Virus record (IMG/VR): IMGVR_UViG_2534681774_000030
Length of the DNA: 24,450 nt
Direction: 5' to 3' (one strand)
Origin: a virus
Lineage: Duplodnaviria; Heunggongvirae; Uroviricota; Caudoviricetes
Shown: positions 1,285-20,039 of the stretch, in pieces
Layout: the number at the start of each line of letters is the position of its first letter
How positions within the stretch are numbered: position 1 is the first letter of the stretch
Position numbers and translations under genes: made by a program
Notes under the pieces: generated by a model
Databases searched by the model: none
What the model was told of the DNA's origin: nothing
What the model saw: the letters and a program-made list of their open reading frames with translations, nothing else

Positions 1285-1330
1285 AGGTTGCTCCGGGCTA
1301 TGAAATAGAAAAATGAATCCGTTGAAGCCT

Positions 1331-1345
1331 GCTTTTTTATACTAA
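1331..1345. other. attL core (GCTTTTTTATACTAA) of lambda site-specific recombination
   Basis: Exact 15-bp lambda att core; left flank matches the bacterial B arm (gaagcct), right flank matches the phage P' arm (gttggcattataaaaaa...) leading into int. Confidence 0.9.
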
Positions 1346-1418
1346 GTTGGCATTATAAAAAAACATTGCTTATCAATTTGTTGCAACGAACAGGTCACTA
1401 TCAGTCAAAATAAAATCA

Positions 1419-2489
1419 TTATTTGATTTCAATTTTGTCCCACTCCCTGCCTCTGTCATCACGATACTGTGATGCCATGGTGTCCGACTTATGTCCGAGA
1501 AGATGTTGAGCAAACTTATCGCTTATCTGCTTCTCATAGAGTCTTGCAGACAAACTGCGCAACTCGTGAAAGGTAGGCGGATCCCCTTCGAAGGAAAGAC
1601 CTGATGCTTTTCGTGCGCGCATAAAATACCTTGATACTGTGCCGGATGAAAGCGGTTCACGACGAGTAGATGCAATTATGGTTTCTCCGCCAAGAATCTC
1701 TTTGCATTTATCAAGTGTTTCCTTCATTGATATCCCGAGAGCATCAACATGCAATGTTGTAGGGATGGCAATTTTTACGCCTGTTTTGCTTTGTTCGACA
1801 TAAAGATATCCATCTACGATATCAGACCACTTCATTTCGCATAAATCACCAACTCGCTGCCCGGTAACAACAGCCAGTTCCATTGCAAGTCTGAGCCAAC
1901 ATGGTGATGATTCTGCTGCTTGATAAATTTTCAGGTATTCGTCAGCCGTAAGTCTTGATCTCCTTACCTCTGATTTTGCTGCGCGAGTGGCAGCGACCGG
2001 GTTTGTTGTTATATGGCCTTCAGCTATTGCCTCTCGGAATGCATCGCTCAGTGTTGATCTGATTAACTTGGCTGACGCCGCCTTGCCCTCGTCTATGTAT
2101 CCATTGAGCATTGCCGCAATTTCTTTTGTGGTGATGTCTTCAAGTGGAGCATCAGGCAGCCCCCTCCTTATTGCTTTAATTTTGCTCATGTAATTTATGA
2201 GTGTCTTCTGCTTGATTCCTCTGCTGGCGAGGATTTTTTCGTAGCGATCAAGCCATGAATGTAACGTAACAGAATTATCACTGTTGATTCTCGCTGTCAG
2301 AGGCTTGTGTTTGTGTCCTGAAAATAACTCAATATTGGCCTGTATTGCTTCAGTGATTGCTATCCTCCTGTCTCGGCCTAAACCAAACTCTTTAGCCGTC
2401 CTTGGGTCCCTGTAGCAGTAATATCCATTGTTTCTTATATAAAGGTTAGGGGGTAAATCCCGGCGCTCATGACTTCGCCTTCTTCCCAT
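1419..2489 (-). CDS. int: Lambda integrase (tyrosine recombinase)
   Basis: 356-aa ORF, recognised as lambda Int (MGRRRSHERRDLPPNLYIRNNGYYCYRDPRT...); adjacent to attL. Confidence 0.97.
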   Translation of the reverse strand: MGRRRSHERRDLPPNLYIRNNGYYCYRDPRTAKEFGLGRDRRIAITEAIQANIELFSGHKHKPLTARINSDNSVTLHSWLDRYEKILASRGIKQKTLINYMSKIKAIRRGLPDAPLEDITTKEIAAMLNGYIDEGKAASAKLIRSTLSDAFREAIAEGHITTNPVAATRAAKSEVRRSRLTADEYLKIYQAAESSPCWLRLAMELAVVTGQRVGDLCEMKWSDIVDGYLYVEQSKTGVKIAIPTTLHVDALGISMKETLDKCKEILGGETIIASTRREPLSSGTVSRYFMRARKASGLSFEGDPPTFHELRSLSARLYEKQISDKFAQHLLGHKSDTMASQYRDDRGREWDKIEIK

Positions 2490-2685
2490 TTCTGATCCTC
2501 TTCAAAAGGCTACCTGTTACTGGTCGATTTAAGTCAACCTTTACCGCTGATTCGTGGAACAGATACTCTCTTCCATCCTTAACCGGAGGAGGGAATATCC
2601 TGCATTCGCGCACCCATCGACGAACTGTTTCAAGGCTTCTTGGGCGTCGCTGGCGTGCGTTCCACTCCTGAAGTGTCAAGTACAT
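2467..2685 (-). CDS. xis: Lambda excisionase
   Basis: 72-aa ORF MYLTLQEWNARQRRPRSLETVRRWVRE..., recognised as lambda Xis; 3' end overlaps int start as in lambda. Confidence 0.96.
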   Translation of the reverse strand: MYLTLQEWNARQRRPRSLETVRRWVRECRIFPPPVKDGREYLFHESAVKVDLNRPVTGSLLKRIRNGKKAKS

Positions 2686-2710
2686 CGCAAAGTCTCCGCA
2701 ATTACACGCA

Positions 2711-2733
2711 AGAAAAAGCCGCCATCAGGCGGC
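2711..2733 (-). terminator. Hairpin with T-run (GCCGCC-tgat-GGCGGC then TTTTTCT on the minus strand) spanning the orf55 stop codon
   Basis: Perfect 6-bp GC stem followed by T5 when read on the minus strand; seen directly in the sequence. Confidence 0.35.
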
Positions 2734-2892
2734 TTGGTGTTCTTTCAGTTCTTCAATTCGAATATTGGTTATGTCTGCATGTGCTATCTGCGCCCATATC
2801 ATCCAGTGGTCATAGCAGTCATTGATGTTCTCTGCTTCGATAACTCTGTTGAATGGTTCTCCATTCCATTCACCTGTGACTCGGAAGTGCAT
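2725..2892 (-). CDS. Small hypothetical protein (55 aa) downstream of xis
   Basis: Manual translation on minus strand: MHFRVTGEWNGEPFNRVIEAENINDCYDHWMIWAQIAHADITNIRIEELKEHQAA; protein-like composition; I recall a 55-aa hypothetical gene at this position in lambda. Too short for the ORF track. Confidence 0.55.
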   Translation of the reverse strand: MHFRVTGEWNGEPFNRVIEAENINDCYDHWMIWAQIAHADITNIRIEELKEHQAA

Positions 2893-3134
2893 TTATCATC
2901 TCCATAAAACAAAACCCGCCGTAGCGAGTTCAGATAAAAGAAATCCTCGTCAGTGCGAGGATGCTGTTCATTGCTGCTATACACTTTTTTGCTCTCAACG
3001 TAAGCGGTAGCTCATTCTGTTGGGTTGGTGCAGTTGCTTTTAGGAAATGCTATTTACCCCTTAAACGTCGGCTGAAAGAGCTAAAATCCATGCAAAAAAT
3101 TTACGCAATTTTGTGTATTATTGTGCAGTAAGTA

Positions 3135-3737
3135 ATGAGCTATTTTCTGCGCAAAAAATGGATGGTAAATTTGTCCGGGGCAGGAAAAATTTTATGGACG
3201 CTAAACATGAAAAAAGATTCGTATCCTTATTTGATTTGCATGACAGTTTCAGGCCTGATCTTTATTTTCCTTTTCTTCTGGTGGCGGGCAGATATTTACA
3301 GGGTCACGTTTCTTAATCAGAGTATATCCCACTATTACATTCTGTTTAGCATGGGAATAGCTTTTCTGTTATCTCTGTTTTGGGTTAAGAAGGGGATAGT
3401 AAAACAAAGCGGCTGGAAGAGTCTGTCAGCATACCTTAAGGTTTATGCAGGGATGTGCATATTTGCTGGATTTTTTCTGATTATACCCCTTACAACACTA
3501 ACTTATTTTTTGCCTGGAGAGACATCGTCTTATGTTGCACCGTATCGGTATACTTCCGGTAGTTCAAAAAGTTGTTCTGGAGCTGAGGTGGATGACCCCG
3601 ATCTACATGAGAATATTCGCATTTGCTATCCGTATGGCAATTATGAGTACGATAATATTATCTATGTTGAAAAGAAAATTAATACATTAGGTGCGGTAGT
3701 AACATATGCACAGACCGCGCGTGATGATACTGAATGA
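3135..3737 (+). CDS. Hypothetical multi-pass membrane protein in the b-region, oriented opposite to the int-xis operon (start uncertain: 3135, 3162 or 3207)
   Basis: 200-aa ORF with several long hydrophobic segments (LICMTVSGLIFIFLFFWW, ILFSMGIAFLLSLFWV, GMCIFAGFFLIIPL); AT-rich; not recognised as a lambda gene. Confidence 0.6.
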   Translation: MSYFLRKKWMVNLSGAGKILWTLNMKKDSYPYLICMTVSGLIFIFLFFWWRADIYRVTFLNQSISHYYILFSMGIAFLLSLFWVKKGIVKQSGWKSLSAYLKVYAGMCIFAGFFLIIPLTTLTYFLPGETSSYVAPYRYTSGSSKSCSGAEVDDPDLHENIRICYPYGNYEYDNIIYVEKKINTLGAVVTYAQTARDDTE

Positions 3738-3771
3738 GATAGTATATAGCGGGCAAGTTTTAGTTAATTTA

Positions 3772-3808
3772 TCGAGGTAATATAATTTACCTCGACTCGT
3801 TTATTCTG
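3772..3808 (+). terminator. Hairpin TCGAGGTAA/TTACCTCGA followed by a T-rich tract, downstream of the membrane-protein gene
   Basis: 9-bp inverted repeat with 6-nt loop seen in the sequence just after the stop at 3737. Confidence 0.35.
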
Positions 3809-3947
3809 GTATTAATATTTCGCTTTACGATCGATTTTTATCTGATGATATCATGCGGTTTTCATATACTGACTTACTGTCTTTTCTCCGTTAGCGATTT
3901 TCTCCTGCTCAGCGATGATTTTATCTTTGGCTTCTAGTTAATTTCGC

Positions 3948-4169
3948 TCACTTCGAACCTCTCTGTTTACTGATAAGTTCCAGATCCTCCTGGCAACTTG
4001 CACAAGTCCGACAACCCTGAACGGCCAGGCGTCTTCGCTCATCTATGGGATCGCCACACTCACAACAATGAGTGGCAGATATAGCCTGGTGGTTCAGGCG
4101 GCGCATTTTTATTGCTGTGTTGCGCTGTAATTCTTCAATTTCTGATGCTGAATCAATGATGTCTGCCAT
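3948..4169 (-). CDS. DksA/TraR-family C4 zinc-finger protein (resembles lambda Orf73)
   Basis: 73-aa ORF with CxxC-N17-CxxC motif (CCECGDPIDERRRLAVQGCRTCASCQ); size and motif typical of the TraR/DksA C4 family found in prophages. Confidence 0.75.
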   Translation of the reverse strand: MADIIDSASEIEELQRNTAIKMRRLNHQAISATHCCECGDPIDERRRLAVQGCRTCASCQEDLELISKQRGSK

Positions 4170-4267
4170 CTTCCATTAATCCCTGAATTGTTGGTTAATA
4201 CGCTTGAGGGTGAATGCGAACAATAAAAAAGGAGCCTGTAGCTCCCTGATGATTTTGCTTTTCATGC

Positions 4268-4549
4268 TCACCGTTCCTTAAAGACGCCGTTTAACATGCC
4301 GATCGCCAGGCTTAAATGAGTCGGTGTGAATCCCATCAGCGTTACCGTTTCGCGGTGCTTCTTCAGTACGCTACGGCAAATGTCATCGACGTTTTTATCC
4401 GGAAACTGCTGTCTGGCTTTTTTGATTTCAGAATTAGCCTGACGGGCAATGCTGCGAAGGGCGTTTTCTTGCTGAGGTGTCACTGAACAAGCCCCATGTC
4501 GGCAAGCATAAGCAAACAGAATATGAAGCCCGCTGCCAGAAAAATGCAT
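4268..4549 (-). CDS. Hypothetical protein (93 aa) at the lambda orf61 position
   Basis: ATG-initiated ORF directly downstream of orf63 in the leftward operon; identity not confirmed. Confidence 0.5.
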   Translation of the reverse strand: MHFSGSGLHILFAYACRHGACSVTPQQENALRSIARQANSEIKKARQQFPDKNVDDICRSVLKKHRETVTLMGFTPTHLSLAIGMLNGVFKER

Positions 4550-4559
4550 TCAGTGGTTG

Positions 4560-4751
4560 TCATACCTGGTCTCTCTCATCTGCTTCTGCTTTCGCCACCA
4601 TCATTTCCAGCTTTTGTGAAAGGGATGTGGCTAACGTATGAAATTCTTCGTCTGTTTCTACTGGTATTGGCACAAACCTGACTCCAATTTGAGCAAGGCT
4701 ATGTGCCATCTCAATGCTCGTTCTTAACTCAACAGGAGATGCTTTGTGCAT
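4560..4751 (-). CDS. Lambda orf63-like protein
   Basis: 63-aa [26 protein letters not shown]..., recognised as lambda orf63. Confidence 0.85.
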   Translation of the reverse strand: MHKASPVELRTSIEMAHSLAQIGVRFVPIPVETDEEFHTLATSLSQKLEMMVAKAEADERDQV

Positions 4752-4912
4752 ACAGCCCCTCGTTTATTATTTATCTCCTCAGCCAGCCGCTGGGCTTTCA
4801 GTGGATTTTGGATAACAGAAAGGTCGGGAAATACCCAGCCTCGCTTTGTAACGGAGTAGACGAAAGTGATCGCACCTACCCGGATATTATCGTGAGGATG
4901 CTTCATCGCCAT
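4724..4912 (-). CDS. Lambda orf60a-like protein
   Basis: [32 protein letters not shown]..., recognised as lambda orf60a; immediately upstream of exo in the operon. Confidence 0.85.
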
Positions 4913-5583
4913 TGCTCCCCAAATACAAAACCAATTTCAGCCAGTGCCTCGTCCATTTTTTCGATGAACTCCGGCACCATCTCGTCAAAACCCGCCATGT
5001 ACTTTTCATCCCGCTCAACCACGACATAATGCAGTCCTTCACGCTTCATACGCGGGTCATAGTTGGCAAAGTACCAGGCATCTTTTCGCGTCACCCACAT
5101 GCTGTACTGCACCTGGGCCATGTAAGCTGACTTTATGGCCTCGAAACCACCGAGCCGGAACTTCATGAAATCCCGGGAGGTAAACGGGCATTTCAGTTCA
5201 AGGCCGTTGCCGTCACTGCATAAACCATCTGGAGAGCAGGCGGTACGCATACTTTCGTCGCGATAGATGATCGGTGATTCAGTAACATTCACGCCGGAAG
5301 TGAACTCAAACAGGGCTCTGGCGTCGTTCTCGTACTGTTTTCCCCAGGCCAGCGCTTTAGCGTTAACTTCCGGAGCCACACCGGTGCAAACCTCAGCAAG
5401 CAGGGTGTGGAAGTAGGACATTTTCATGTCAGGCCACTTTTTTCCGGAGCGGGGTTTTGCTATTACGTTATGAACTTCTGAAGCTGTGATGACGCCGAGC
5501 CGTAATTTGTGCCACGCATCATCCCCCTGTTCGACAGCTCTCACGTCGATCCCGGTACGCTGCAGGATAATGTCCGGTGTCAT
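4903..5583 (-). CDS. exo: Lambda exonuclease (Red alpha)
   Basis: 226-aa [41 protein letters not shown]..., recognised as lambda Exo. Confidence 0.97.
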
Positions 5584-6365
5584 GCTGCCACCTTCTGCTC
5601 AGTGGCTTTCTGTTTCAGGAATCCAAGAGCTTTCACTGCTTCGGCCTGTGTCAGTTCTGACGATGCGCGAATGTCGCGGCGAAATATCTGGGAACAGAGC
5701 GGCAATAAGTCGTCATCCCATGTTTTATCCAGGGCGATTAGCAGAGTGTTAATCTCCTGCATGGTTTCATCGTTAACCGGAGTGATGTCGCGTTCCGGCT
5801 GGCGTTCTGCAGTGTATGCAGTATTTTCGACAATGCGCTCGGCTTCATCCTTGTCATAGATACCAGCAAATCCGAAGGCCAGACGGGCACACTGAATCAT
5901 AGCTTTATGCCGTAACATCCGTTTAGGATGCGACTGCCACGGCCCCGTGATTTCTCTGCCTTCGCGGGTTTTGAATGGTTCGCGGCGGCATTCATCCATC
6001 CATTCGGTAACGCAGATCGGATGATTACGGTCCTTGCGGTAAATCCGGCATGTACAGGATTCATTGTCCTGCTCAAAGTCCATGCCATCAAACTGCTGGT
6101 TTTCATTGATGATGCGGGACCAGCCATCAACGCCCACCACCGGAACGATGCCGTTCTGCTTATCAGGGAAGGCGTAAATTTCTTTCGTCCACGGATTAAG
6201 GCCGTACTGGTTGGCGACGATCAACAATGCGATGAACTGCGCATCGCTGGCATCGCCTTTAAATGCCGTCTGGCGAAGAGTGGTGATCAGTTCCTGTGGG
6301 TCGACAGAATCCATGCCGACACGTTCAGCCAGCTTCCCTGCCAGCGTTGCGAGTGCTGTACTCAT
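5580..6365 (-). CDS. bet: Lambda Bet (Red beta single-strand annealing protein)
   Basis: 261-aa [51 protein letters not shown]..., recognised as lambda Bet; ATGA overlap with exo. Confidence 0.97.
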
Positions 6366-6370
6366 CCGTT

Positions 6371-6787
6371 TTATACCTCTGAATCAATATCAACCTGATG
6401 GTGAGCAATGGTTTCAACCATGTACCGGATGTGTTCTGCCATGCGCTCCTGAAACTCAACATCGTCATCAAACGCACGGGTAATGGCTTTTTTGCTGGCC
6501 CCGTGGCGTTGCAAATGACCGATGCATAGCGATTCAAACAGGTGCTGGGGCAGGCCTTTTTCCATGTCGTCTGCCAGTTCTGCCTCTTTCTCTTCACGGG
6601 CTATCTGCTGGTAGTGACGCGCCCAGCTCTGAGCCTCAAGACGATCCTGAATGTAATAAGCGTTCATGGCCGAACTCCTGAAATAGCTGTGAAAATATCG
6701 CCCGCGAAATGCCGGGCTGATTAGGAAAACAGGAAAGGGGGTTAGTGAATGCTTTTGCTTGATCTCAGTTTCAGTATTAATATCCAT
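6371..6787 (-). CDS. gam: Lambda Gam (RecBCD inhibitor)
   Basis: 138-aa [58 protein letters not shown]..., recognised as lambda Gam long form. Confidence 0.96.
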
Positions 6788-6885
6788 TTTTTATAAGCGT
6801 CGACGGCCTCACGAAACATCTTTTCATCGCCAATAAAAGTGGCGATAGTGAATTTAGTCTGGATAGCCATAATTGTTTGATCCAT
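6742..6885 (-). CDS. kil: Lambda Kil (FtsZ inhibitor)
   Basis: 47-aa product [47 protein letters not shown] taken from the internal Met of the 89-aa track ORF; overlaps gam by 46 nt and cIII by 32 nt as in lambda. Confidence 0.9.
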
Positions 6886-7018
6886 TTTTTGGGACTCCTG
6901 GCTGATTAAGTATGTCGATAAGGCGTTTCCATCCGTCACGTAATTTACGGGTGATTCGTTCAAGTAAAGATTCGGAAGGGCAGCCAGCAACAGGCCACCC
7001 TGCAATGGCATATTGCAT
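6854..7018 (-). CDS. cIII: Lambda cIII (FtsH inhibitor)
   Basis: Manual translation [54 protein letters not shown] (54 aa); below the ORF-track length cutoff. Confidence 0.9.
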   Translation of the reverse strand: MQYAIAGWPVAGCPSESLLERITRKLRDGWKRLIDILNQPGVPKNGSNNYGYPD

Positions 7019-7090
7019 GGTGTGCTCCTTATTTATACATAACGAAAAACGCCTCGAGTGAAGCGTAATTGGTATGCGGTAACGCCGCGC

Positions 7091-7459
7091 TCAGGCGGCC
7101 TTGATAGTCATATCATCTGAATCAAATATTCCTGATGTATCGATATCGGTAATTCTTATTCCTTCACTACCATCCATTGGAGGCCATCCTTCCTGACCAT
7201 TTCCATCATTCCAGTCGAACTCACACACAACACCATATGCATTTAAGTCGCTTGAAATTGCTATAAGCAGAGCATGTTGCGCCAGCATGATTAATACAGC
7301 ATTTAATACAGAGCCGTGTTTATTGAGTCGGTATTCAGAGTCTGACCAGAAATTATTAATCTGGTGAAGTTTTTCCTCTGTCATTACGTCATGGTCGATT
7401 TCAATTTCTATTGATGCTTTCCAGTCGTAATCAATGATGTATTTTTTGATGTTTGACAT
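7091..7459 (-). CDS. ea10: Lambda Ea10 (Ssb-like early protein)
   Basis: 122-aa ORF recognised as lambda Ea10; same length and same 72-nt spacing from cIII as in lambda. Confidence 0.88.
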   Translation of the reverse strand: MSNIKKYIIDYDWKASIEIEIDHDVMTEEKLHQINNFWSDSEYRLNKHGSVLNAVLIMLAQHALLIAISSDLNAYGVVCEFDWNDGNGQEGWPPMDGSEGIRITDIDTSGIFDSDDMTIKAA

Positions 7460-7478
7460 CTGTTCATATCCTCACAGA

Positions 7479-7505
7479 TAAAAAATCGCCCTCATCTTGG
7501 AGGGC
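7479..7505 (-). terminator. Intrinsic-terminator-like hairpin on the leftward strand (GCCCTC-caagat-GAGGGC then GATTTTTTAT)
   Basis: Perfect 6-bp GC stem plus T6 run on the minus strand, between the unknown 293-aa ORF and ea10. Confidence 0.5.
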
Positions 7506-7647
7506 AAAGAAGATTTCCAATAATCAGAACAAGTCGGCTCCTGTTTAGTTACGAGCGACATTGCTCCGTGTATTCACTCGTTGGAATGAATACACAGCGC
7601 TGTGTTTATTCTGTTGTTTGCGTGAAAATGAAATCCGCCTGAGCGGG

Positions 7648-8525
7648 TTATGACCACTTTTTGTTTGGGTTTCGTTGGTGAGCGTGGTTTACAGGATTAT
7701 TTGATATACCCCATAACTCTGACTCGCTTATCTCTACACGAGAGAAAGACCTGCTTTCTTTCAGTTCTTTTATAAACCTAGAACCTAAGATGACATCTAT
7801 TGTACCAGAAAGTTCTTGTAAAAGATCTATGTTTTTTCTGAGGAAGAAAATATCTTCTTTATATTTAATTTTTACATAGAATTTATTCTGTATTTTTAAT
7901 ATATCAAAGCATGGCAGATATCTATATCCCTCATATTTTCGCCACTGCTTAACAATTATAACATCTTTTTCATTTACTGCATTAATCAGCCCAAGACCAA
8001 GTACAGGTATGAATATTCTATTGTCTGCCGAAAGCGTACAATTATCACCACCAGGCAAATATGTATAAATCATGTCGGAATTTTTATACGCATCAACGAA
8101 TGCACGTAAGAAGCGTACATATTTTTGCCATCCGTTTATACCGAATTTACCATATAAGTATTCTTTATTTGTTAGAAGAAAACTATTTGTATCAGGATCC
8201 TTATCTACAGACCTGTCGATAAGATCTCCAACTACGTTTACAAAGTCAAAGACAGAGTTTAATAAGAACAATTGTCTTTCAGTAGGGCGAATTTCAATTA
8301 TGTAGCCAGGATGAAGACGATATTGCATCTGCTTACGAAGTATACCGAACGCTTGGGTCCGAGCATCTGAAAGCAACTTCTTGTCGCCATCGCCGTGAGC
8401 ATTGTTTCTAATAAAACTGATATAATTTGCTAATTTTTCAGCCTCTTTTTTGTGTTTTTTTCGCTCTGATGCTGAGTCTATTGGTTTTGGTATGGACTTG
8501 TAATCAATCTTCTTCATTACGTACC

Positions 8526-8529
<4 letters not shown>
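7648..8529 (-). CDS. Hypothetical AT-rich 293-aa protein at the ral/sieB position of the leftward early operon; candidate superinfection-exclusion or defence gene (probable true start at the second Met, 8517)
   Basis: Long uninterrupted ORF; its ATG overlaps the N stop codon (ATGA); a GAGGT Shine-Dalgarno precedes the second Met; Lys/Ile/Asn-rich composition contrasts with the lambda genes on either side; not recognisable as any lambda gene. Confidence 0.6.
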
Positions 8530-10616
<2,087 letters not shown>

Positions 10617-10621
10617 GTGGT
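10617..10621. repeat. Target-site duplication GTGGT (right copy) of the IS100 insertion
   Basis: See left copy. Confidence 0.8.
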
Positions 10622-10808
10622 ATTCAGCCAGCACCGTAAGGTCTATCGGATTCAGTGCGCTTTCTACTCGTGATTTCGGTTTGCGATTCAGCGAGAGAAT
10701 AGGGCGGTTAACTGGTTTAGCGCTTACCCCAACCAACAGGGGATTTGCTGCTTTCCATTGAGCCTGTTTCTCTGCGCGACGTTCGCGGCGGCGTGTTTGT
10801 GCATCCAT
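10617..10808 (-). pseudogene. N: N antiterminator, N-terminal fragment (codons 1-64), interrupted by IS100
   Basis: MDAQTRRRERRAEKQAQWKAANPLLVGVSAKPVNRPILSLNRKPKSRVESALNPIDLTVLAEYH matches lambda N, then reads into the IS terminus (CHERCNSDPH...). The two fragments minus one TSD copy sum to 324 nt, the length of lambda N. Confidence 0.9.
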
Positions 10809-10965
10809 CTGGATTCTCCTGTCAGTTAGCTTTGGTTGTGTGTGGGAGTCGTAGTCCTGAACGAAAACACCCCGCAATGGCACATTGGCAGCTAATCCGG
10901 ATTCGCACTTCCGGCCAATGCTTCGTTTCGTATCACACACACCAAAGCCTTCTGCTTTGAATGCT

Positions 10966-10996
10966 GCCCTTCTTCAGGGCTTAATTTTTAAGAGCC
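10966..10996 (-). promoter_or_regulatory. nutL (boxA GCTCTTA... and boxB GCCCTGAAGAAGGGC)
   Basis: Minus-strand sequence GCTCTTAAAAATTAAGCCCTGAAGAAGGGCAGCATTC matches lambda nutL; boxB forms a 5-bp stem. Confidence 0.85.
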
Positions 10997-11041
10997 TCAC
11001 CTTCAATGGTGGTCAGTGCGTCCTGCTGATGGCTTAAAATT

Positions 11042-11109
11042 ACAAGGAAGATTGTATATTGTAAACAAGAAATATTGTAAAAAGGGGCGTGAAAAACAAA
11101 CTCCATTGT
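11042..11109 (-). promoter_or_regulatory. 434-type left operators OL1-OL3 with the pL promoter
   Basis: Three 14-mers of form ACAA-N6-TTGT: ACAAGGAAGATTGT (11042-11055), ACAAGAAATATTGT (11065-11078), ACAAACTCCATTGT (11096-11109). Confidence 0.8.
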
Positions 11110-11159
11110 TTTTAAACGGAAAATAGTTTGTTTTTTTGTTATCGAGATTGAGGTGGGGA

Positions 11160-12512
<1,353 letters not shown>

Positions 12513-12520
12513 GACATTCC

Positions 12521-12552
12521 CGCTCTTACACATCCCAGCCCTGAAAAAGGGC
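12521..12552 (+). promoter_or_regulatory. nutR (boxA CGCTCTTACA, boxB GCCCTGAAAAAGGGC)
   Basis: Matches lambda nutR boxA and boxB stem-loop; lies between cro and cII where the tR1 region is expected. Confidence 0.85.
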
Positions 12553-12631
12553 ATCAAAATAAACCACACCTATGGTGTATGCATTTATTTGCATACATTC
12601 AATCAATTGTTATCTAAGGAAATACTTACAT

Positions 12632-12925
12632 ATGGTTCGTGCAAACAAACGCAACGAGGCTCTACGAATCGAGAGTGCGTTGCTTAACAAAATCGCAATG
12701 CTTGGAACTGAGAAGACAGCGGAAGCTGTGGGAGTTGATAAGTCGCAGATCAGCAGGTGGAAGAGGGATTGGATTCCAAAGTTCTCAATGCTGCTTGCTG
12801 TTCTTGAATGGGGTGTCGTCGACGACGACATGGCTCGATTGGCACGACAAGTTGCTTCGATTCTCACCAATAAAAAACGCCCGGCGGCAACCGAGCGTTC
12901 TGAACAAATCCAGATGGAATTCTGA
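12632..12925 (+). CDS. cII: Lambda cII transcriptional activator
   Basis: 97-aa product MVRANKRNEALRIESALLNKIAMLGTEKTAEAVGVDKSQISRWKRDWIPKF... from the internal Met of the track ORF; recognised as lambda cII. Confidence 0.95.
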   Translation: MVRANKRNEALRIESALLNKIAMLGTEKTAEAVGVDKSQISRWKRDWIPKFSMLLAVLEWGVVDDDMARLARQVASILTNKKRPAATERSEQIQMEF

Positions 12926-12957
12926 GGTTATTACTGGAACTATCAACAGGAGTCATT

Positions 12958-13857
12958 ATGACAAATACAGCAAAAATACTCAACTTCGGCAGAGGTAACT
13001 TTGCCGGACAGGAGCGTAATGTGGCAGATCTCGATGATGGTTACGCCAGACTATCAAATATGCTGCTTGAGGCTTATTCAGGCGCAGATCTGACCAAGCG
13101 ACAGTTTAAAGTGCTGCTTGCCATTCTGCGTAAAACCTATGGGTGGAATAAACCAATGGACAGAATCACCGATTCTCAACTTAGCGAGATTACAAAGTTA
13201 CCTGTCAAACGGTGCAATGAAGCCAAGTTAGAACTCGTCAGAATGAATATTATCAAGCAGCAAGGCGGCATGTTTGGACCAAATAAAAACATCTCAGAAT
13301 GGTGTATCCCTCAAAACGAGGGAAAATCCCCTAAAACGAGGGATAAAACATCCCTCAAATTGGGGGATTGCTATCCCTCAAAACAGGGGAACACAAAAGA
13401 CACTAATACAAAAGAAAATAGAAAAGATTATTCGTCAGAGAATTCTGGCGAATCCTCTGACCAGCCAGAAAACGACCTTTCTGTGGTGAAACCTGATGCT
13501 GCAATTCAGAGCGGCAGCAAATGGGGGACAGCAGAAGACCTGACCGCCGCAGAGTGGATGTTTGACATGGTGAAGACTATCGCGCCATCAGCCAGAAAAC
13601 CGAATTTTGCAGGGTGGGCTAACGATATCCGCCTGATGCGTGAACGTGACGGACGTAACCACCGCGATATGTGTGTGCTGTTCCGCTGGGCCTGCCAGGA
13701 CAACTTCTGGTCCGGTAATGTGCTGAGCCCGGCCAAACTCCGCGACAAGTGGACCCAGCTCGAAATCAACCGTAACAAGCAACAGGCAGTCGTGACAGCC
13801 AGCAAACCAAAACTCGACCTGACAAACACAGACTGGATTTACGGGGTGGATTTATGA
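12958..13857 (+). CDS. O: Lambda O replication initiator
   Basis: 299-aa ORF recognised as lambda O; contains the ori iterons. Confidence 0.96.
   Translation: MTNTAKILNFGRGNFAGQERNVADLDDGYARLSNMLLEAYSGADLTKRQFKVLLAILRKTYGWNKPMDRITDSQLSEITKLPVKRCNEAKLELVRMNIIKQQGGMFGPNKNISEWCIPQNEGKSPKTRDKTSLKLGDCYPSKQGNTKDTNTKENRKDYSSENSGESSDQPENDLSVVKPDAAIQSGSKWGTAEDLTAAEWMFDMVKTIAPSARKPNFAGWANDIRLMRERDGRNHRDMCVLFRWACQDNFWSGNVLSPAKLRDKWTQLEINRNKQQAVVTASKPKLDLTNTDWIYGVDL
13306..13392. repeat. ori-lambda iterons (four repeats of about 19 bp, ATCCCTCAAAACGAGGG-like) followed by an AT-rich tract, inside O
   Basis: Tandem repeats tccctcaaaacgaggga / tcccctaaaacgaggga / tccctcaaattggggga / tccctcaaaacagggga, then an A-rich region at 13393-13440. 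Confidence 0.9.
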
Positions 13858-14555
13858 AAAACATCGCCGCACAGATGGTTAACTTTGACCGTGAGCAGAT
13901 GCGTCGGATCGCCAACAACATGCCGGAACAGTACGACGAAAAGCCTCAGGTACAGCAGGTAGCGCAGATCATCAACGGTGTGTTCAGCCAGTTACTGGCA
14001 ACTTTCCCGGCGAGCCTGGCTAACCGTGACCAGAACGAACTGAACGAAATCCGCCGCCAGTGGGTTCTGGCTTTCCGGGAAAACGGGATCACCACAATGG
14101 AACAGGTTAACGCAGGAATGCGCGTAGCCCGTCGGCAGAATCGACCATTTCTGCCATCACCCGGGCAGTTTGTTGCATGGTGCCGGGAAGAAGCATCCGT
14201 TATCGCCGGACTGCCAAACGTCAGCGAGCTGGTTGATATGGTTTACGAGTATTGCCGGAAGCGAGGCCTGTATCCGGATGCGGAGTCTTATCCGTGGAAA
14301 TCAAACGCGCACTACTGGCTGGTTACCAACCTGTATCAGAACATGCGGGCCAATGCGCTTACTGATGCGGAATTACGGCGCAAGGCTGCCGATGAACTGT
14401 CCTGTATGACCGCACGAATTAACCGTGGTGAGGCTATACCTGAACCAGTAAAACAACTTCCTGTCATGGGCGGTAGACCTCTAAATCGTGCACAGGCTCT
14501 GGCGAAGATCGCAGAAATCAAAGCTAAGTTTGGGCTGAAAGGAGCAAGTGTATGA
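13854..14555 (+). CDS. P: Lambda P (DnaB helicase loader)
   Basis: 233-aa ORF recognised as lambda P; ATGA overlap with O. Confidence 0.96.
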   Translation: MKNIAAQMVNFDREQMRRIANNMPEQYDEKPQVQQVAQIINGVFSQLLATFPASLANRDQNELNEIRRQWVLAFRENGITTMEQVNAGMRVARRQNRPFLPSPGQFVAWCREEASVIAGLPNVSELVDMVYEYCRKRGLYPDAESYPWKSNAHYWLVTNLYQNMRANALTDAELRRKAADELSCMTARINRGEAIPEPVKQLPVMGGRPLNRAQALAKIAEIKAKFGLKGASV

Positions 14556-14842
14556 CGGGCAAAGAGGCAATTATTCATTACCTGGGGACGCATAATAGCT
14601 TCTGTGCGCCGGACGTTGCCGCGTTAACAGGCGCAACAGTAACCAGCATAAATCAGGCCGCGGCTAAAATGGCACGGGCAGGTCTTCTGGTTATCGAAGG
14701 TAAGGTCTGGCGAACGGTGTATTACCGGTTCGCTACTAGGGAAGAACGGGAAGGAAAGATGAGCACGAACCTGATTTTTAAGGAGTGTCGCCAGAGTGCC
14801 GCGATGAAACGGGTATTGGCGGTATATGGAGTTAAAAGATGA
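14552..14842 (+). CDS. ren: Lambda Ren
   Basis: 96-aa ORF recognised as lambda Ren; overlaps the P stop. Confidence 0.93.
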   Translation: MTGKEAIIHYLGTHNSFCAPDVAALTGATVTSINQAAAKMARAGLLVIEGKVWRTVYYRFATREEREGKMSTNLIFKECRQSAAMKRVLAVYGVKR

Positions 14843-14915
14843 CCATCTACATCACTGAGCTAATAACAGGCCTGCTGGTAATCGCAGGCCTTTTTATTTG
14901 GGGGAGAGGGAAGTC

Positions 14916-15356
14916 ATGAAAAAACTAACCTTTGAAATTCGATCTCCAGCACATCAGCAAAACGCTATTCACGCAGTACAGCAAATCCTTCCAGACCCAA
15001 CCAAACCAATCGTAGTAACCATTCAGGAACGCAACCGCAGCTTAGACCAAAACAGGAAGCTATGGGCCTGCTTAGGTGACGTCTCTCGTCAGGTTGAATG
15101 GCATGGTCGCTGGCTGGATGCAGAAAGCTGGAAGTGTGTGTTTACCGCAGCATTAAAGCAGCAGGATGTTGTTCCTAACCTTGCCGGGAATGGCTTTGTG
15201 GTAATAGGCCAGCCAACCAGCAGGATGCGTGTAAGCGAATTTGCGGAGCTATTAGAGCTTATACAGGCATTCGGTACAGAGCGTGGCGTTAAGTGGTCAG
15301 ACGAAGCGCGACTGGCTCTCGAATGGAAAGCGCGATGGGGAGATCGGGCTGCATGA
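14916..15356 (+). CDS. ninB: NinB (Orf recombination mediator)
   Basis: 146-aa product starting MKKLTFEIRSPAHQQNAIHAVQQ..., recognised as lambda NinB; internal start within the 152-aa track ORF. Confidence 0.93.
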   Translation: MKKLTFEIRSPAHQQNAIHAVQQILPDPTKPIVVTIQERNRSLDQNRKLWACLGDVSRQVEWHGRWLDAESWKCVFTAALKQQDVVPNLAGNGFVVIGQPTSRMRVSEFAELLELIQAFGTERGVKWSDEARLALEWKARWGDRAA

Positions 15357-15880
15357 CTATCAAATCAAATACGCCAGCACACGACAAGGACTGCTGGCAA
15401 ACGCCGCTTTGGCTTTTTGATGCACTGGATATTGAGTTTGGATTCTGGCTGGATTCGGCAGCGAGCGACAAAAACGCTCTGTGCGCTCACTGGCTAACTG
15501 AGGCTGACGACGCGCTAAATTCTGAGTGGATAAGCCACGGTGCAATCTGGAATAACCCACCGTACAGCAATATCAGGCCGTGGGTGGAAAAAGCCGCTGA
15601 GCAGTGCATACAACAGCGACAGACGGTAGTGATGCTTGTGCCAGAGGATATGTCTGTCGGATGGTTCAGCAAGGCTCTGGAGAGTGTTGACGAAGTTCGT
15701 ATTATCACTGATGGACGGATTAATTTTATCGAACCATCGACAGGGCTGGAGAAGAAGGGAAACAGCAAAGGCTCCATGCTGCTGATTTGGCGACCGTTCA
15801 TTAGTCCTCGACGGATGTTTACTATCGTATCCAAAGCGGCATTGATGGCGATCGGGCAGGGCGTCAGGAGGGCGACATGA
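15353..15880 (+). CDS. Phage N6-adenine DNA methyltransferase (Dam-like, about 175 aa) at the ninC/ninD position
   Basis: Catalytic NPPY motif ([10 protein letters not shown]); start ATG overlaps the ninB stop; size and motif fit the small phage Dam-like family. Confidence 0.75.
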
Positions 15881-16059
15881 GGCGACAACGACGAAGTTTC
15901 ACCGACATCATCTGCGAAAACTGCAAATACCTTCCAACGAAACGCTCCAGAAATAAACGCAAGCCAATCCCAAAAGAATCTGACGTAAAAACCTTCAACT
16001 ACACGGCTCACCTGTGGGATATCCGGTGGCTAAGACATCGTGCGAGGAATACAAGGTGA
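15877..16059 (+). CDS. ninE: NinE
   Basis: 60-aa [30 protein letters not shown]..., recognised as lambda NinE. Confidence 0.88.
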
Positions 16060-16226
16060 TTGACCCAAATCGAAGTTACGAACAAGAAAGCGTCGAGCGG
16101 GCTTTAACGTGCGCTAATTGCGGTCAGAAGCTGCATGTGCTGGAAGTTCACGTGTGTGAGCACTGCTGTGCAGAGCTGATGAGCGATTCGAATAGCTCGA
16201 TGCACGAGGAAGAAGATGATGGCTAA
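16056..16226 (+). CDS. ninF: NinF (probable GTG start)
   Basis: [44 protein letters not shown]... matches lambda NinF; same 171-nt length as in lambda. Confidence 0.8.
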
Positions 16227-16830
16227 ACCAGCGCGAAGACGATGTAAAAACGATGAATGTCGGGAATGGTTTCACCCTGCATTCGCTAATCAGTGGTGGT
16301 GCTCTCCAGAGTGTGGAACCAAGATAGCACTCGAACGACGAAGTAAAGAACGCGAAAAAGCGGAAAAAGCAGCAGAGAAGAAACGACGACGAGAGGAGCA
16401 GAAACAGAAAGATAAACTTAAGATTCGAAAACTCGCCTTAAAGCCCCGCAGTTACTGGATTAAACAAGCCCAACAAGCCGTAAACGCCTTCATCAGAGAA
16501 AGAGACCGCGACTTACCATGTATCTCGTGCGGAACGCTCACGTCTGCTCAGTGGGATGCCGGACATTACCGGACAACTGCTGCGGCACCTCAACTCCGAT
16601 TTGATGAACGCAATATTCACAAGCAATGCGTGGTGTGCAACCAGCACAAAAGCGGAAATCTCGTTCCGTATCGCGTCGAACTGATTAGCCGCATCAGGCA
16701 GGAAGCAGTAGACGAAATCGAATCAAACCATAACCGCCATCGCTGGACTGTCGAAGAGTGCAAGGCGATCAAGGCAGAGTACCAACAGAAACTCAAAGAC
16801 CTGCGAAACAGCAGAAGTGAGGCTGCATGA
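16216..16830 (+). CDS. ninG: NinG (Rap recombination endonuclease)
   Basis: 204-aa ORF recognised as lambda NinG. Confidence 0.93.
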
Positions 16831-17492
16831 ATATCTACGAAAGAATTGATGGCAGCAAATACCGAAATATTTGGGTAGCTGGCGACCTGCACGGATGCTA
16901 CACGAACCTGATGAACAAACTGGATACGATTGGATTCGACACCAAAAAAGACCTGCTCATCTCGGTTGGCGATTTGGTTGATCGCGGTACAGAGAACGTC
17001 GAATGTCTGGAATTAATCACATTCCCCTGGTTCAGAGCTGTGCGTGGAAACCATGAGCAAATGATGATTGATGGCTTATCAGAGCGTGGAAACGTTAATC
17101 ACTGGCTGCTTAATGGCGGTGGCTGGTTCTTTAATCTCGATTACGACAAAGAGACTCTGGCTAAAGTTCTTGCCCATAAAGCAGAAGAACTTCCGTTAAT
17201 CATCGAACTGGTGAGCAAAGATAAAAAATATGTCATTTGCCACGCCGATTATCCTTGTGATAAATACGAGTTTGGAAAGCCAGTTGATCATCAGCAGGTA
17301 ATCTGGAACCGCGAACGAATCAGCAACTCACAAGACGGGATCGTGAAAGAAATCAAAGGCGCGGACACGTTCATCTTTGGTCATACGCCAGCAGTGAAAC
17401 CACTCAAATTTGCCAACCAGATGTATATCGATACTGGCGCAGTGTTCTGCGGAAACCTCACATTGATTCAGGTACAGGGAGAAGGCGCATGA
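16827..17492 (+). CDS. ninI: NinI, phage Ser/Thr protein phosphatase
   Basis: 221-aa ORF with metallophosphatase motifs GDLHG, GDLVDRG, GNHE; recognised as lambda NinI; directly follows ninG, so ninH is absent. Confidence 0.93.
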
Positions 17493-17578
17493 GACTCGAA
17501 AGCGTAGCTAAATTTCATTCGCCAAAAAGCCCGATGATGAGCGACTCACTACTGGCCACAGTTTATTGGTTTTCGTAA
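17489..17578 (+). pseudogene. Q: Lambda Q remnant: first 20 codons intact, then divergent sequence and stop after 29 codons
   Basis: [20 protein letters not shown] matches the lambda Q N-terminus, then LLATVYWFS*; ATGA overlap with ninI as in lambda. Confidence 0.8.
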
Positions 17579-17611
17579 CTGAGTCATTTTATTATTTTAT
17601 TGCAACTTTTA

Positions 17612-17662
17612 ATCTTTTATAGTGCGAAATAAATGGAGCTGGCATTCATTTCGCACTTTATG
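17612..17662 (+). terminator. Hairpin GTGCGAAAT(17 nt)ATTTCGCAC followed by TTTATGTTTTTGTT
   Basis: 9-bp perfect inverted repeat plus T-rich tract between the Q stub and the 3' end of the outer-membrane gene. Confidence 0.4.
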
Positions 17663-17703
17663 TTTTTGTTGGACTTATGTTATTTTGATTGAATTCAATT
17701 CAG

Positions 17704-18663
17704 TTAAAAAAAGAAGGTGATTGCTCCATTTATAAATGAATAGTCATCCCCTGTCTTGAATTCTGATGTTACTTTATTAAATGCTAGTGTGAAGGCTACA
17801 GGTGCATACCCAATTGTTGCGCCAACTTGATATTCATCAACAGTTTTGTTTAGCGATACTGTTGTTTGTTTCGTCTGTATTGTTTTTCCTTCGAGAGTAT
17901 AGTTGCGATTGACATCTCGTCTTTCCATACCTGCAAAAATCTTGTATTTGAATCCGCTTGTATCGGACATATGCATTAAACCACGGGGAGCCAGCAGACC
18001 AAAGCCATTATCCGAATTGAAGGTTTTATCATTACCAATGGCAATGGTTGCGCCATATGCTACATATTGAAATAAGTTTCCAGTAACAGCAGAAACTTCA
18101 GGGTATAATCCAACATTAGCACCTAAAATATCCATACTTGGTGTCATGGATAGCATCCCTTTTACAGTATAACCGTAGCGATTCTCTATTTGATCATCCC
18201 ATGCATGATATTTTTCTGCCCCAATAATCTCATGAGCTTTATTTTGTACTTTCTGACCGCCTGCGTCGGGGCCAACAACACCTATGTCAGTACCTAATCG
18301 ATAGCGAATCCAGTCATTCGCAAGGGAGTTCCATTCAATACCAGTGTGAGTGTATGCACTAAAAGCTCTGTCTCCAGTTACGGCTGTGTTGTGTCTTTTA
18401 TTACTGCCTGATGGAGAGTAAATATCTTGCGCAATATGGAGAGATAATTGGCTCGAGTCTGAGATATCGTGGCTATATCCCAGAAATAAGCCTTGTGAGT
18501 AATCATCTCTGTTTTCATGTTTATTGCCATAAATATCATTAAGTATTGGTTGAAACTTCCCTGCATCATCATTTGCTAATGATAATGCAAGGCTGTTCGC
18601 GATAGCTGAACACGTGGTAAATGACAGAGCAATAAAGACGCCAGCGATGACACTTTTTTTCAT
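17704..18663 (-). CDS. Outer-membrane beta-barrel protein (319 aa, signal peptide, C-terminal Phe); possibly LpxR-like lipid A 3'-O-deacylase
   Basis: Signal peptide MKKSVIAGVFIALSFTTCSAIA; alternating amphipathic beta-strand pattern; C-terminus ...AITFFF; the 319-aa size equals what I recall for the Salmonella LpxR precursor; AT-rich flanks. Confidence 0.6.
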   Translation of the reverse strand: MKKSVIAGVFIALSFTTCSAIANSLALSLANDDAGKFQPILNDIYGNKHENRDDYSQGLFLGYSHDISDSSQLSLHIAQDIYSPSGSNKRHNTAVTGDRAFSAYTHTGIEWNSLANDWIRYRLGTDIGVVGPDAGGQKVQNKAHEIIGAEKYHAWDDQIENRYGYTVKGMLSMTPSMDILGANVGLYPEVSAVTGNLFQYVAYGATIAIGNDKTFNSDNGFGLLAPRGLMHMSDTSGFKYKIFAGMERRDVNRNYTLEGKTIQTKQTTVSLNKTVDEYQVGATIGYAPVAFTLAFNKVTSEFKTGDDYSFINGAITFFF

Positions 18664-19138
18664 ATGTTATTGTCTTCCTTTTTTTTGAATGGTGCGCGTA
18701 TTTTACATACATGAGTTTGTAATACAAGGTGCGTAATCAATATGATGTTTTATAATTGCGTGAGACAATTGATTTATTTGTTTTTTATTGTGGTTTTTAT
18801 TATCTTTTAATGTAACGGTGTTTTTATTAAGTGTGTTTGCGTGGTGTTTTATGTTTTTTATAATTTTTATTTTATTAAATTTAAATGCATTAGTAATGGC
18901 TATTCTATATAGCAATATAAGAACTGTTACAAAAAAAGGGGGGGCAATTACAGGTAGTTATGGATGATGAGTGAAACAGATATTGGAGAACCGGGGAATG
19001 AATGATGTCTGAGTCTTATATATCAGAACTCCTTCGCTGTCGCTGGGGGCTCCTGTGCTTATGTCGTTTCCCCGATTCGGTTTTGAACGATTACCGAATG
19101 TTGAAGAATTATGCCAAAATATAGAAAGGATTTACTGC

Positions 19139-19828
19139 ATGAATACCCAATATTTACAGTATGTTCGTGAGCAACTTATGGCAGCTACTGCTGACTTGAA
19201 CGGAGCAACGAAAGGCCAGCTCGAAGCCTGGCAGGAGCATGCACAATTTGATACTGGTACATACAAACGAAAGAAGCCGCGCATTCTGGATGTGGTAACT
19301 GGCAAGATGATTACGCTGGATAATACGCCGACTTCCGGTAAGCAGTCGTACGCAAAAGGTTCATCCATTGCTTTGGTCAGCCCGGTTGAATTCTCAACCT
19401 CTTCATGGCGCCGCGCGGTTTTGTCTCTCGATGAACATCAGAAAGCATGGTTGCTTTGGTGTTACAGCGAAAGCGTTCGATGGGGGCATCAGGTCACCAT
19501 AACGCAATGGGCATGGAGCGAGTTTAAAGATTTGTTAAGTAACAGAAAAATTGCAGGTAAGACACTGGATCGCCTGAAGACGTTAATCTGGCTGGCTGCA
19601 CAGGATGTGAAGAGCGAACTTGCAGGGCGTGAGGCCTATGAATACCAGACACTGGCATCATTGGTGGGAGTGACAACAAAAAACTGGTCCGAGACATTTA
19701 CTGAACGCTGGGTTGCAATGAAGCACATTTTTCTACAGCTTGATAGTGATGCTTTATTGCTTGTGACGAGAACACGTTCAAAACAAAAGGCAGCATTTTT
19801 ACAGCAAAATATTGCAAAACTGGATTAA
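19139..19828 (+). CDS. Candidate late-gene antiterminator Q of a non-lambda (phage 82/Qin-type) family; start may be upstream at 19055
   Basis: About 230-aa ORF in the position between the nin region and the lysis genes, followed within about 50 nt by an intrinsic terminator; the family assignment rests on position and size, not on recognised sequence. Confidence 0.4.
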   Translation: MNTQYLQYVREQLMAATADLNGATKGQLEAWQEHAQFDTGTYKRKKPRILDVVTGKMITLDNTPTSGKQSYAKGSSIALVSPVEFSTSSWRRAVLSLDEHQKAWLLWCYSESVRWGHQVTITQWAWSEFKDLLSNRKIAGKTLDRLKTLIWLAAQDVKSELAGREAYEYQTLASLVGVTTKNWSETFTERWVAMKHIFLQLDSDALLLVTRTRSKQKAAFLQQNIAKLD

Positions 19829-19874
19829 AAGCCATATACTTCATGCAAATTTGGTATGTTGTAAAAAATGTATA

Positions 19875-19900
19875 AACCCGCTGCCGAGTGGGTTTTTTTT
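19875..19900 (+). terminator. Intrinsic terminator (ACCCGC-tgccg-AGTGGGT then T8); candidate tR' ending a short pR' transcript
   Basis: 7-bp stem with one G-U wobble followed by eight T residues, just downstream of the Q-like gene. Confidence 0.6.
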
Positions 19901-20039
19901 ATGCCCTGAGTTGTACTTGTACGGTAAACATGCTGGCTGCTATGTAATAGAGTTTTTTTAGCCTGTAACCTCTTGACGGCATTGAATTGCTTTTGTTATG
20001 AGTTGTAAGCCAATGTTATCATCTTGTATTGGGGTGGTT

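Follow-up and report, generated by a model that had tools for sequence, protein, structure and literature searches.

A T1 Dam-family adenine methyltransferase gene in the 434-type nin region of a lambda-like prophage

In phage lambda, the nin region is ordered ninB-C-D-E-F-G-H-I, with ninC encoding a PAPS-reductase-like protein and ninH an HTH protein. The stretch of DNA analysed here (the window; 24,450 nucleotides, IMG/VR record IMGVR_UViG_2534681774_000030) carries an adenine methyltransferase gene between ninB and ninE, a feature shared with phage 434, Shiga-toxin phages, and numerous further lambda-like prophages. The phage 434 counterpart, CPT_434_59 (UMO75323.1), is already annotated as a "DNA adenine methyltransferase," and prior literature covers the gene via phage 434, HK97, Stx phages, and T1. 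In VT2-Sakai, orf32 has the same position and length (175 aa), whereas the rest of that nin region contains ant, roi, and ninH and has no ninF or ninI at these positions. Phage T1 is virulent and its gene context is unlike that of the window; its Dam is a characterised GATC enzyme. The window, a lambda-like prophage, is about 99% identical to phage 434, but the 434 record (GenBank OL657226.1) covers only 82% of its whole length. Whereas 434 is a laboratory phage, the window represents a 434-like prophage adjoining ybhC.

The nin genes of the window lie on the forward strand. A tR2-type intrinsic terminator, recognised by a scan as a GC-rich hairpin with a T-run, is located just 5′ of ninB (positions 14868 to 14900), and a terminator is annotated at the matching position in phage 434. 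Next come ninB (orf), which encodes a recombination mediator (14916 to 15356; PF05772, E = 1e-53), the gene for a 175-aa phage N-6-adenine DNA methyltransferase (15353 to 15880; PF05869, E = 1.5e-64), and ninE (15877 to 16059; PF05322, E = 1.3e-42). The GTG start of ninF overlaps the ninE stop (16056 to 16226; PF05810, E = 2e-12), and its coordinates match the 434 annotation. The region closes with ninG (rap), encoding a junction-specific endonuclease (16216 to 16830; PF05766, E = 5e-90), and ninI (orf221), encoding a Ser/Thr protein phosphatase of the calcineurin-like phosphoesterase family (16827 to 17492, the last position being its stop; PF00149, E = 3e-16). NinI also matches NF008516 with an E value of 1e-81, yet stays under the equivalog cut-off of that model. 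All nin junctions are overlapping stops and starts (ATGA, GTGA, or an 11-nt overlap), and a Shine-Dalgarno-like purine run precedes every overlapping start. The Pfam assignments of ninB, ninE, ninF, ninG, and ninI and the exact ORF ends bear out the gene calls and coordinates of the preliminary description.

Comparison with lambda delimits what has been exchanged. Lambda and the window share the order of ninB, ninE, ninF, ninG, and ninI, which are about 97% identical at the DNA level, as well as the tight ATGA coupling and the upstream tR2; NinG is 99% identical to its lambda counterpart. The window differs in having no ninC, ninD, or ninH: a tblastn search of the whole window with the three lambda proteins gave no match (best E values of 1.7, 0.21, and 5.2, respectively). 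In the alignment, ninB is lambda-like as far as its stop codon, and the similarity returns within about 5 to 8 nt of the ninE start codon. Together with the overlap at 15353 to 15356, these junctions confirm that a methyltransferase gene coupled to ninB replaces ninC and ninD. Similarly, ninH is cleanly missing from the interval that begins at the ninG stop and ends at ninI codon 4, from which point ninI is lambda-like. At the site that ninH occupies in lambda, the joint consists of 5 non-lambda bases (16831 to 16835), and the stop codon of ninG and the start codon of ninI overlap. The alignment and the tblastn result thus agree with the earlier statement that ninI directly follows ninG.

This arrangement is widespread. 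The methyltransferase gene is present at 95% or more DNA identity in 1,566 of the 5,426 complete E. coli genomes, and the direct ninG–ninI junction, detected with a 50-nt probe across the joint, in 735 of them. The preliminary description called the region rearranged, which goes too far: it is a common mosaic allele, near-identical in the annotated phage 434, and hence a standard mosaic variant rather than a rearrangement. The methyltransferase gene is one of several interchangeable ninB–ninE cassettes of lambda-like phages, the lambda cassette being ninC plus ninD, and was probably swapped in by recombination at gene boundaries. The ninH-less junction probably arose by the same kind of exchange. 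A functional coupling between NinB and the methyltransferase was considered and rejected, as homologues in Yersinia, Providencia, and Edwardsiella prophages do not adjoin NinB; the Orf-family paper reports no link between the two. Separately, database entries for fused NinB–Dam or Dam–NinE proteins look like assembly or frameshift artefacts.

The methyltransferase matches two curated family models over practically their full length, PF05869 "Dam" (217.2 bits versus a cut-off of 28.1; profile positions 1 to 167 of 169) and TIGR01712, the phage_N6A_met equivalog (262.8 bits versus 97.05; positions 1 to 165 of 165), as well as PHROG 111, "DNA methyltransferase" (E = 3e-87). Judged from these profile scores, the family match is far beyond chance. 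The NPPY segment (residues 68 to 71; positions 15554 to 15565) corresponds to motif IV, the catalytic and adenine-binding loop; N68, P69, P70, and Y71 are invariant in an alignment of 38 homologues, down to 58% identity. In the AlphaFold2 model (pLDDT of 88.4), which has the class I Rossmann-like fold of AdoMet-dependent N6-adenine methyltransferases, this segment directly follows a predicted strand (residues 64 to 68). Upstream, the motif I-like FWLDSA segment (residues 31 to 36; positions 15443 to 15460) coincides with a predicted strand, and F31, L33, D34, and A36 are invariant in the same alignment. By analogy with the class I methyltransferase fold, FWLDSA is presumed to form the AdoMet-binding strand and loop. 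A sequence search of the PDB with the methyltransferase gave no significant match, the best hit, to SdiA (E = 0.18), being noise.

The family profiles, the invariance of the motif, and the predicted fold support the earlier assignment of an NPPY adenine methyltransferase. In particular, a chance occurrence of NPPY in an unrelated fold is excluded by its invariance in the 38 homologues and the confident methyltransferase model. Compared with the VT2-Sakai allele, the gene shows 10 synonymous and 3 non-synonymous differences (dN/dS of 0.08) and is under purifying selection. The broader idea of a remnant ORF without activity, or of a fortuitous motif, has practically no probability in view of the full-length matches to PF05869 and TIGR01712, the invariant motifs, this dN/dS value, the confident fold, and the DNA identity of at least 95% kept in 1,566 genomes. 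No nuclease gene adjoins the methyltransferase gene, its neighbours being those for NinB and NinE, and the same holds in phage 434 and VT2-Sakai; by its gene neighbourhood, the enzyme is an orphan with no partner restriction endonuclease.

The term "Dam-like," used in the preliminary description, fits the enzyme with regard to the GATC activity reported for its relatives but not with regard to ancestry. The protein belongs to the PF05869 family of T1 Dam and has no sequence link to E. coli or T4 Dam: PF05869 was the only match in a Pfam scan with E values up to 0.01, in which PF02086 was not found, and structural alignments with alpha-class Dam enzymes gave 8 to 9% identity. E. coli Dam, T4 Dam, and DpnM (alpha class, PF02086) are much larger and contain an inserted DNA-recognition domain, whereas the model of the window enzyme is a single domain without a separate target-recognition domain. 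The likeness in specificity to E. coli and T4 Dam is convergent.

The closest structural neighbours of the model are N6-adenine methyltransferases, with the mRNA cap enzyme PCIF1/CAPAM at the top. This raises the question of RNA as a substrate, instead of or besides DNA, all the more so as another Stx-phage "DNA adenine methyltransferase" proved to prefer 16S rRNA (PMC10810198). However, that enzyme, M.EcoPA8orf6770P, is not the one encoded here: it has a DPPW motif of the MT-A70 type as opposed to NPPY and PF05869, and it is gp5 of its prophage with the partner subunit PNB-2 encoded upstream, where the window has NinB. We consider RNA methylation highly improbable. Since the recognition domain is absent and PCIF1 is the closest structural relative, it is also conceivable, albeit very unlikely, that the main in vivo substrate or role is something other than GATC protection, be it RNA, single-stranded intermediates of replication or recombination on which the neighbouring NinB and NinG act, or the control of lysis versus lysogeny.

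The protein has the same residue as VT2-Sakai orf32, labelled "similar to DNA methylase," at 172 of 174 positions (99%). We infer that orf32 encodes M.EcoVT2Dam, because no other methylase-like ORF occurs in the VT2-Sakai stretches examined (record positions 1 to 19961), because the Phi24B orthologue is named "dam," and because M.EcoVT2Dam was reportedly grouped with T1 and HP1 Dam by Radlinska and Bujnicki in 2001. A possible second methyltransferase of VT2-Sakai, orf4, was ruled out, as it is a DUF551 protein. The phage T1 ORF (ST20, 237 aa) matches PF05869 with an E value of 1.7e-70 and is 33% identical to the window enzyme over 158 residues (E = 2e-26). The two share the motifs WxTP, LDxAAS, NPPYS, and GR..F, while T1 Dam is extended by about 45 residues at its N terminus and contains an insertion ahead of GR..F. 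The Phi24B "dam" CDS is 100% identical to VT2-Sakai orf32 (PMC3342100), and a passage of PMC6602927 that cites Radlinska & Bujnicki 2001 gives GATC as the target of M.EcoVT2Dam of prophage VT2-Sa. In SMRT methylomes of STEC strains with two copies of the gene, the authors predicted GATC for the enzyme and credited the single extra motif, CRARCAG, to a different one. A full-text literature search for "PF05869" retrieved just mentions from eukaryotes (oomycete, DIRS retrotransposon) and unrelated ones from phages.

By analogy with these relatives, the most probable target of the window enzyme is the adenine in GATC. A relaxed or non-GATC specificity of the Hia5 or M.EcoGII type, which would offer broad protection against restriction, would suit a single-domain enzyme of 175 aa with no separate recognition domain, and non-specific adenine methyltransferases do exist on phages (PMC3299994; PMC7556043). 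We nevertheless find it very unlikely, given the GATC specificity reported for M.EcoVT2Dam, the GATC prediction of the STEC methylome authors, and the membership of T1 Dam in the family. Hia5/Hin1523 was dropped as a lead, as the terms T1, HP1, VT-2, and lambdoid were not found in the Hia5 paper (PMC3299994). The window itself contains 70 GATC sites where 95 to 114 are expected, a mild deficit similar to those of AGCT and GGCC that says little either way.

With tR2 upstream of ninB, the nin genes can be transcribed from pR only if N provides antitermination. The methyltransferase gene is part of the delayed-early pR operon past tR2, translationally coupled to ninB and ninE. This position and coupling suggest that the enzyme is made during lytic growth, once N permits read-through. 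A scan of the sequence found promoter-like sites in no excess (7 versus 8.6 expected). In Phi24B, the transcript level of the dam orthologue changes significantly on prophage induction (PMC3342100).

Could the enzyme act mainly in the lysogen, where it would supplement host Dam and so stabilise lysogeny or reprogram host gene expression? The gene may be expressed to some extent outside full lytic growth, because the Phi24B protein was picked up by an antiserum raised against lysogen cultures; its authors proposed such a role, and stable 933W lysogeny requires host Dam (PMC3342100). However, lysogen cultures always include spontaneously induced cells, and the gene lies behind tR2 in a pR operon that CI represses and that shows no excess of promoter-like sites. 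As the orthologue transcript also changes on induction, altered host gene expression in a stable lysogen is the less likely of the two roles raised in the preliminary description, the other being protection against restriction, and we regard a main role in the lysogen as very unlikely.

E. coli hosts already possess Dam, and therefore the selective benefit of a phage-borne enzyme is not obvious. We propose that replicating phage DNA would be methylated at GATC faster than host Dam manages. Progeny DNA might thereby be shielded from methylation-sensitive restriction enzymes that cut at GATC, especially after growth in Dam-poor hosts, and GATC sites could be kept from the unmethylated or hemimethylated state read by MutH and SeqA. 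Virion DNA of lambda and P22, which have no such gene, is under-methylated at Dam sites (PMC8022706), and the function of phage-borne GATC methyltransferases "is still not well understood" (PMC7556043). As a whole, the reading of a minimal AdoMet-dependent GATC N6-adenine methyltransferase, encoded by a swapped nin cassette, expressed in lytic growth, and acting to the benefit of phage DNA, appears very likely to us.

Seen against known systems, the nin methyltransferase gene is genuine without being novel. The family to which it belongs, its position, and the specificity reported for it are public, so that it is an ordinary, already annotated gene of low discovery value. The contrast with lambda, which lacks the gene in a nin background near-identical to that of 434, provides a clean natural pair for addressing its benefit. 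The nin region of the window is a 434-type and not a lambda-type allele. Over the 2,601 bp from ninB to ninI it is collinear with, and 99.9% identical to, annotated phage 434 (GenBank OL657226.1), with the same gene neighbours, overlaps, and tR2, and the methyltransferase gene differs from CPT_434_59 by 1 nt, in the last codon (T175A). At the nin region, the window and phage 434 are thus essentially the same.

An ORF listing, together with inspection of the sequence at positions 14840-17720, revealed a run of plus-strand genes, which Pfam identifies as NinB (14916-15356), a 175-aa PF05869 protein, "DNA N-6-adenine-methyltransferase (Dam)" (15353-15880; E 1.5e-64), NinE (15877-16059), NinF (16056-16226, with a GTG start), NinG (16216-16830), and, at 16827-17492, a calcineurin-like phosphoesterase that corresponds to lambda NinI/orf221. 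These analyses show that the nin coordinates in the preliminary description were exact. Stop and start codons overlap at every nin junction (ATGA, GTGA, or 11 nt), and a purine-rich stretch resembling a Shine-Dalgarno sequence lies 5' of each; PMC8022706 describes tight ATGA packing of the nin genes as common to lambdoid phages in general. The order in lambda is ninB-C-D-E-F-G-H-I (J02459), and tblastn searches of the whole window with lambda NinC, NinD, and NinH yielded only noise (best E values of 1.7, 0.21, and 5.2, respectively). Alignment of the junctions shows that similarity to lambda ends at the ninB stop (15356) and picks up again no more than a few bases from where ninE starts (about 15877-15885), while ninI comes directly after the ninG stop, with five non-lambda bases (16831-16835) versus a ninH of about 190 bp in lambda. 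The joints coincide with gene boundaries, as is usual in lambdoid mosaicism.

The methyltransferase assignment is supported by family models. The window protein scores 262.8 bits against the equivalog-level model TIGR01712 (phage_N6A_met; cut-off, 97) and matches PHROG 111 "DNA methyltransferase" with an E value of 3e-87. A search of a large protein collection gave 262 homologues, every one of them PF05869; the source genera include Escherichia, Pectobacterium, Serratia, Edwardsiella, Providencia, Yersinia, and Photorhabdus. When 38 of these homologues, down to 58% identity, are aligned, N68-P69-P70-Y71-S72, T17-P18, F31/L33/D34/A36, P97/D99, G121-R122 with F125, and I145-W146-R147-P148 are invariant, and W15 is nearly so. 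A sequence search of the PDB found no solved relative, and AlphaFold2, run on the homologue alignment, gave a confident single-domain α/β model (pLDDT 88.4, pTM 0.86) in which NPPY directly follows a predicted strand (residues 64 to 68), the canonical place of motif IV. Compared with the allele of the Stx phage VT2-Sakai, the gene carries 10 synonymous and 3 nonsynonymous differences (dN/dS 0.08). Since family models, homologues, motifs, fold, and selection agree, a chance NPPY match in an unrelated fold is excluded, and the conservation and dN/dS contradict the idea that the gene is an inactive remnant. The earlier observation that a methyltransferase gene replaces ninC/ninD and that ninH is missing is confirmed, and its interpretation is supported.

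The VT2-Sakai counterpart, orf32 ("similar to DNA methylase"), is identical to the window protein at 172 of 174 residues. The 528-bp "dam" coding sequence of the Stx phage Phi24B matches orf32 at 100% identity, and the HK97 homologue is 99% identical to orf32 (PMC3342100). According to a passage in PMC6602927 citing Radlinska & Bujnicki 2001, M.EcoVT2Dam, the orphan methyltransferase of prophage VT2-Sa, "is known to target 5'-GATC-3'". In the stretches read of the VT2-Sakai record (1-19961), orf32 is the only methylase-like ORF. From this, the Phi24B naming, and a grouping of M.EcoVT2Dam with the T1 and HP1 Dam enzymes reportedly made by Radlinska and Bujnicki, we infer that M.EcoVT2Dam is orf32. 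The methyltransferase ORF of phage T1 also belongs to PF05869 (E 1.7e-70), and its alignment with the window protein (33% identity, E 2e-26) extends through all conserved motifs; T1 Dam is a GATC enzyme. A relaxed-specificity adenine methyltransferase, of the Hia5 or M.EcoGII type, is unlikely given the GATC specificity reported for M.EcoVT2Dam. In a SMRT study of STEC strains with this gene, the authors predicted GATC for its product and assigned the one extra motif to a different enzyme. E. coli and T4 Dam are not sequence relatives of the window protein: Pfam reports PF05869 only, and structural alignments give 8 to 9% identity. Therefore, the term "Dam-like" used in the preliminary description holds for the reported target, GATC, and not for the lineage. 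Activity directed at RNA might be considered from the similarity to PCIF1 and from an rRNA methyltransferase recently reported from an Stx prophage. The latter, however, is the product of a different gene: an MT-A70/DPPW protein that works with a partner subunit and is encoded at another place in the prophage. Counts over the whole window show strong avoidance of CTAG (5 sites versus 17.5 expected) and only a mild shortage of GATC (70 versus 95 to 114 expected); GATC, AGCT, and GGCC are similar in this, each at about 0.62 to 0.65 of expectation.

The methyltransferase gene belongs to the rightward early operon and is downstream of a tR2-type terminator (14868-14900) that was found by scanning and is annotated just upstream of ninB in the phage 434 record; promoter-like sites within 14500-19200 show no excess over shuffled sequence (7 versus 8.6). 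By established lambda biology, genes so placed would receive pR transcription only after N-mediated antitermination, i.e., during lytic growth or induction. The transcript level of the Phi24B orthologue changes significantly on induction (PMC3342100), which is consistent with pR/N-dependent lytic expression. The regulatory role at the lysogen stage put forward by the Phi24B authors (PMC3342100) sits poorly with this operon position. Virion DNA of lambda and P22 is undermethylated at Dam sites, "possibly because replication outstrips modification" (PMC8022706), and the most economical role for the window enzyme would be to bring GATC methylation of phage DNA to completion as it replicates. Full methylation may shield the progeny from restriction systems that cut GATC and are sensitive to its methylation, and could prevent MutH or SeqA from acting at un- or hemimethylated sites. 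In the words of a group that studies phage methyltransferases, what phage Dam enzymes do "is still not well understood" (PMC7556043).

Neither the methyltransferase gene nor the direct ninG-ninI junction is unusual. The former occurs at at least 95% identity in 1,566 of 5,426 complete E. coli genomes, where the matches listed are annotated "phage N-6-adenine-methyltransferase" with NinB and NinE on either side. It is also present in 244 phage records, among them HK140, mEp043, mEp213, Sf101, SfI, VT1-Sakai, VT2-Sakai, and many Stx phages. For the junction, a 50-nt spanning probe matches 735 of the 5,426 genomes. Beyond these, Yersinia prophages carry a 68%-identical homologue in an early operon whose start lies close to a YqaJ (exonuclease-like) gene and, in one locus, close to an integrase. 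In Providencia and Edwardsiella prophages, the homologue has other early-region genes on one side and a Q-type antiterminator on the other, adjoining RusA or unknown genes. In every case it either overlaps the gene before it or adjoins it without a gap, and in Providencia and Edwardsiella this holds for the gene after it as well. None of the homologues in these Yersinia, Providencia, and Edwardsiella loci (L006-L012) adjoins NinB. The methyltransferase gene is not tied to NinB and acts as a self-contained cassette that temperate phages carry in their early regions. The neighborhoods of these homologues (66 to 72% identity) differ widely: close to YqaJ exonuclease-like and DNA_pol3_theta-like genes, adjacent to RusA, or close to Lar restriction-alleviation genes. 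Several protein-search entries (P0001, P0013, P0022, P0117, and others) show the methyltransferase fused to NinE, NinB, RusA, or other neighbors; these are most likely frameshift or assembly artifacts at 4-nt overlaps rather than real fusions.

Right after ninI, and overlapping its stop, lies a 29-codon remnant of the lambda Q N terminus (17489-17578, plus strand), followed by a lipid A deacylase LpxR-family gene (17704-18663, minus strand; PF09982, E 7e-40) and a phage-82-type Q antiterminator, different from lambda Q (19055-19828, plus strand; PF06323, E 2e-91). The LpxR-family gene sits on the opposite strand between the two Q sequences, in a low-GC stretch (0.31 to 0.41). This arrangement looks like an old Q-module replacement plus a host-envelope "moron", and all three elements are already annotated in the phage 434 record.

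The left end of the window (1-1330) matches the ybhC side of E. coli chromosomes, and the window is therefore a 434-like prophage integrated next to ybhC, the lambda attachment site. Positions 1331-23506 match phage 434 at 99.3% identity over 82% of the window, leaving 1-1330 and 23506-24450 outside the match. Since phage 434 covers no more than this and none of the complete E. coli genomes in the collection covers more than 89%, this mosaic as a whole is present in neither collection. From ninB to ninI (2,601 bp), the window matches both published Escherichia phage 434 genomes (OL657226/7) in one piece at 99.9% identity, and the methyltransferase gene differs by one nucleotide, in its last codon, from the phage 434 copy, which the curated record lists as "DNA adenine methyltransferase" (UMO75323.1) between NinB and NinE homologues. 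The window nin region is a textbook-level lambdoid mosaic allele, the same as that of phage 434, already annotated and already known.
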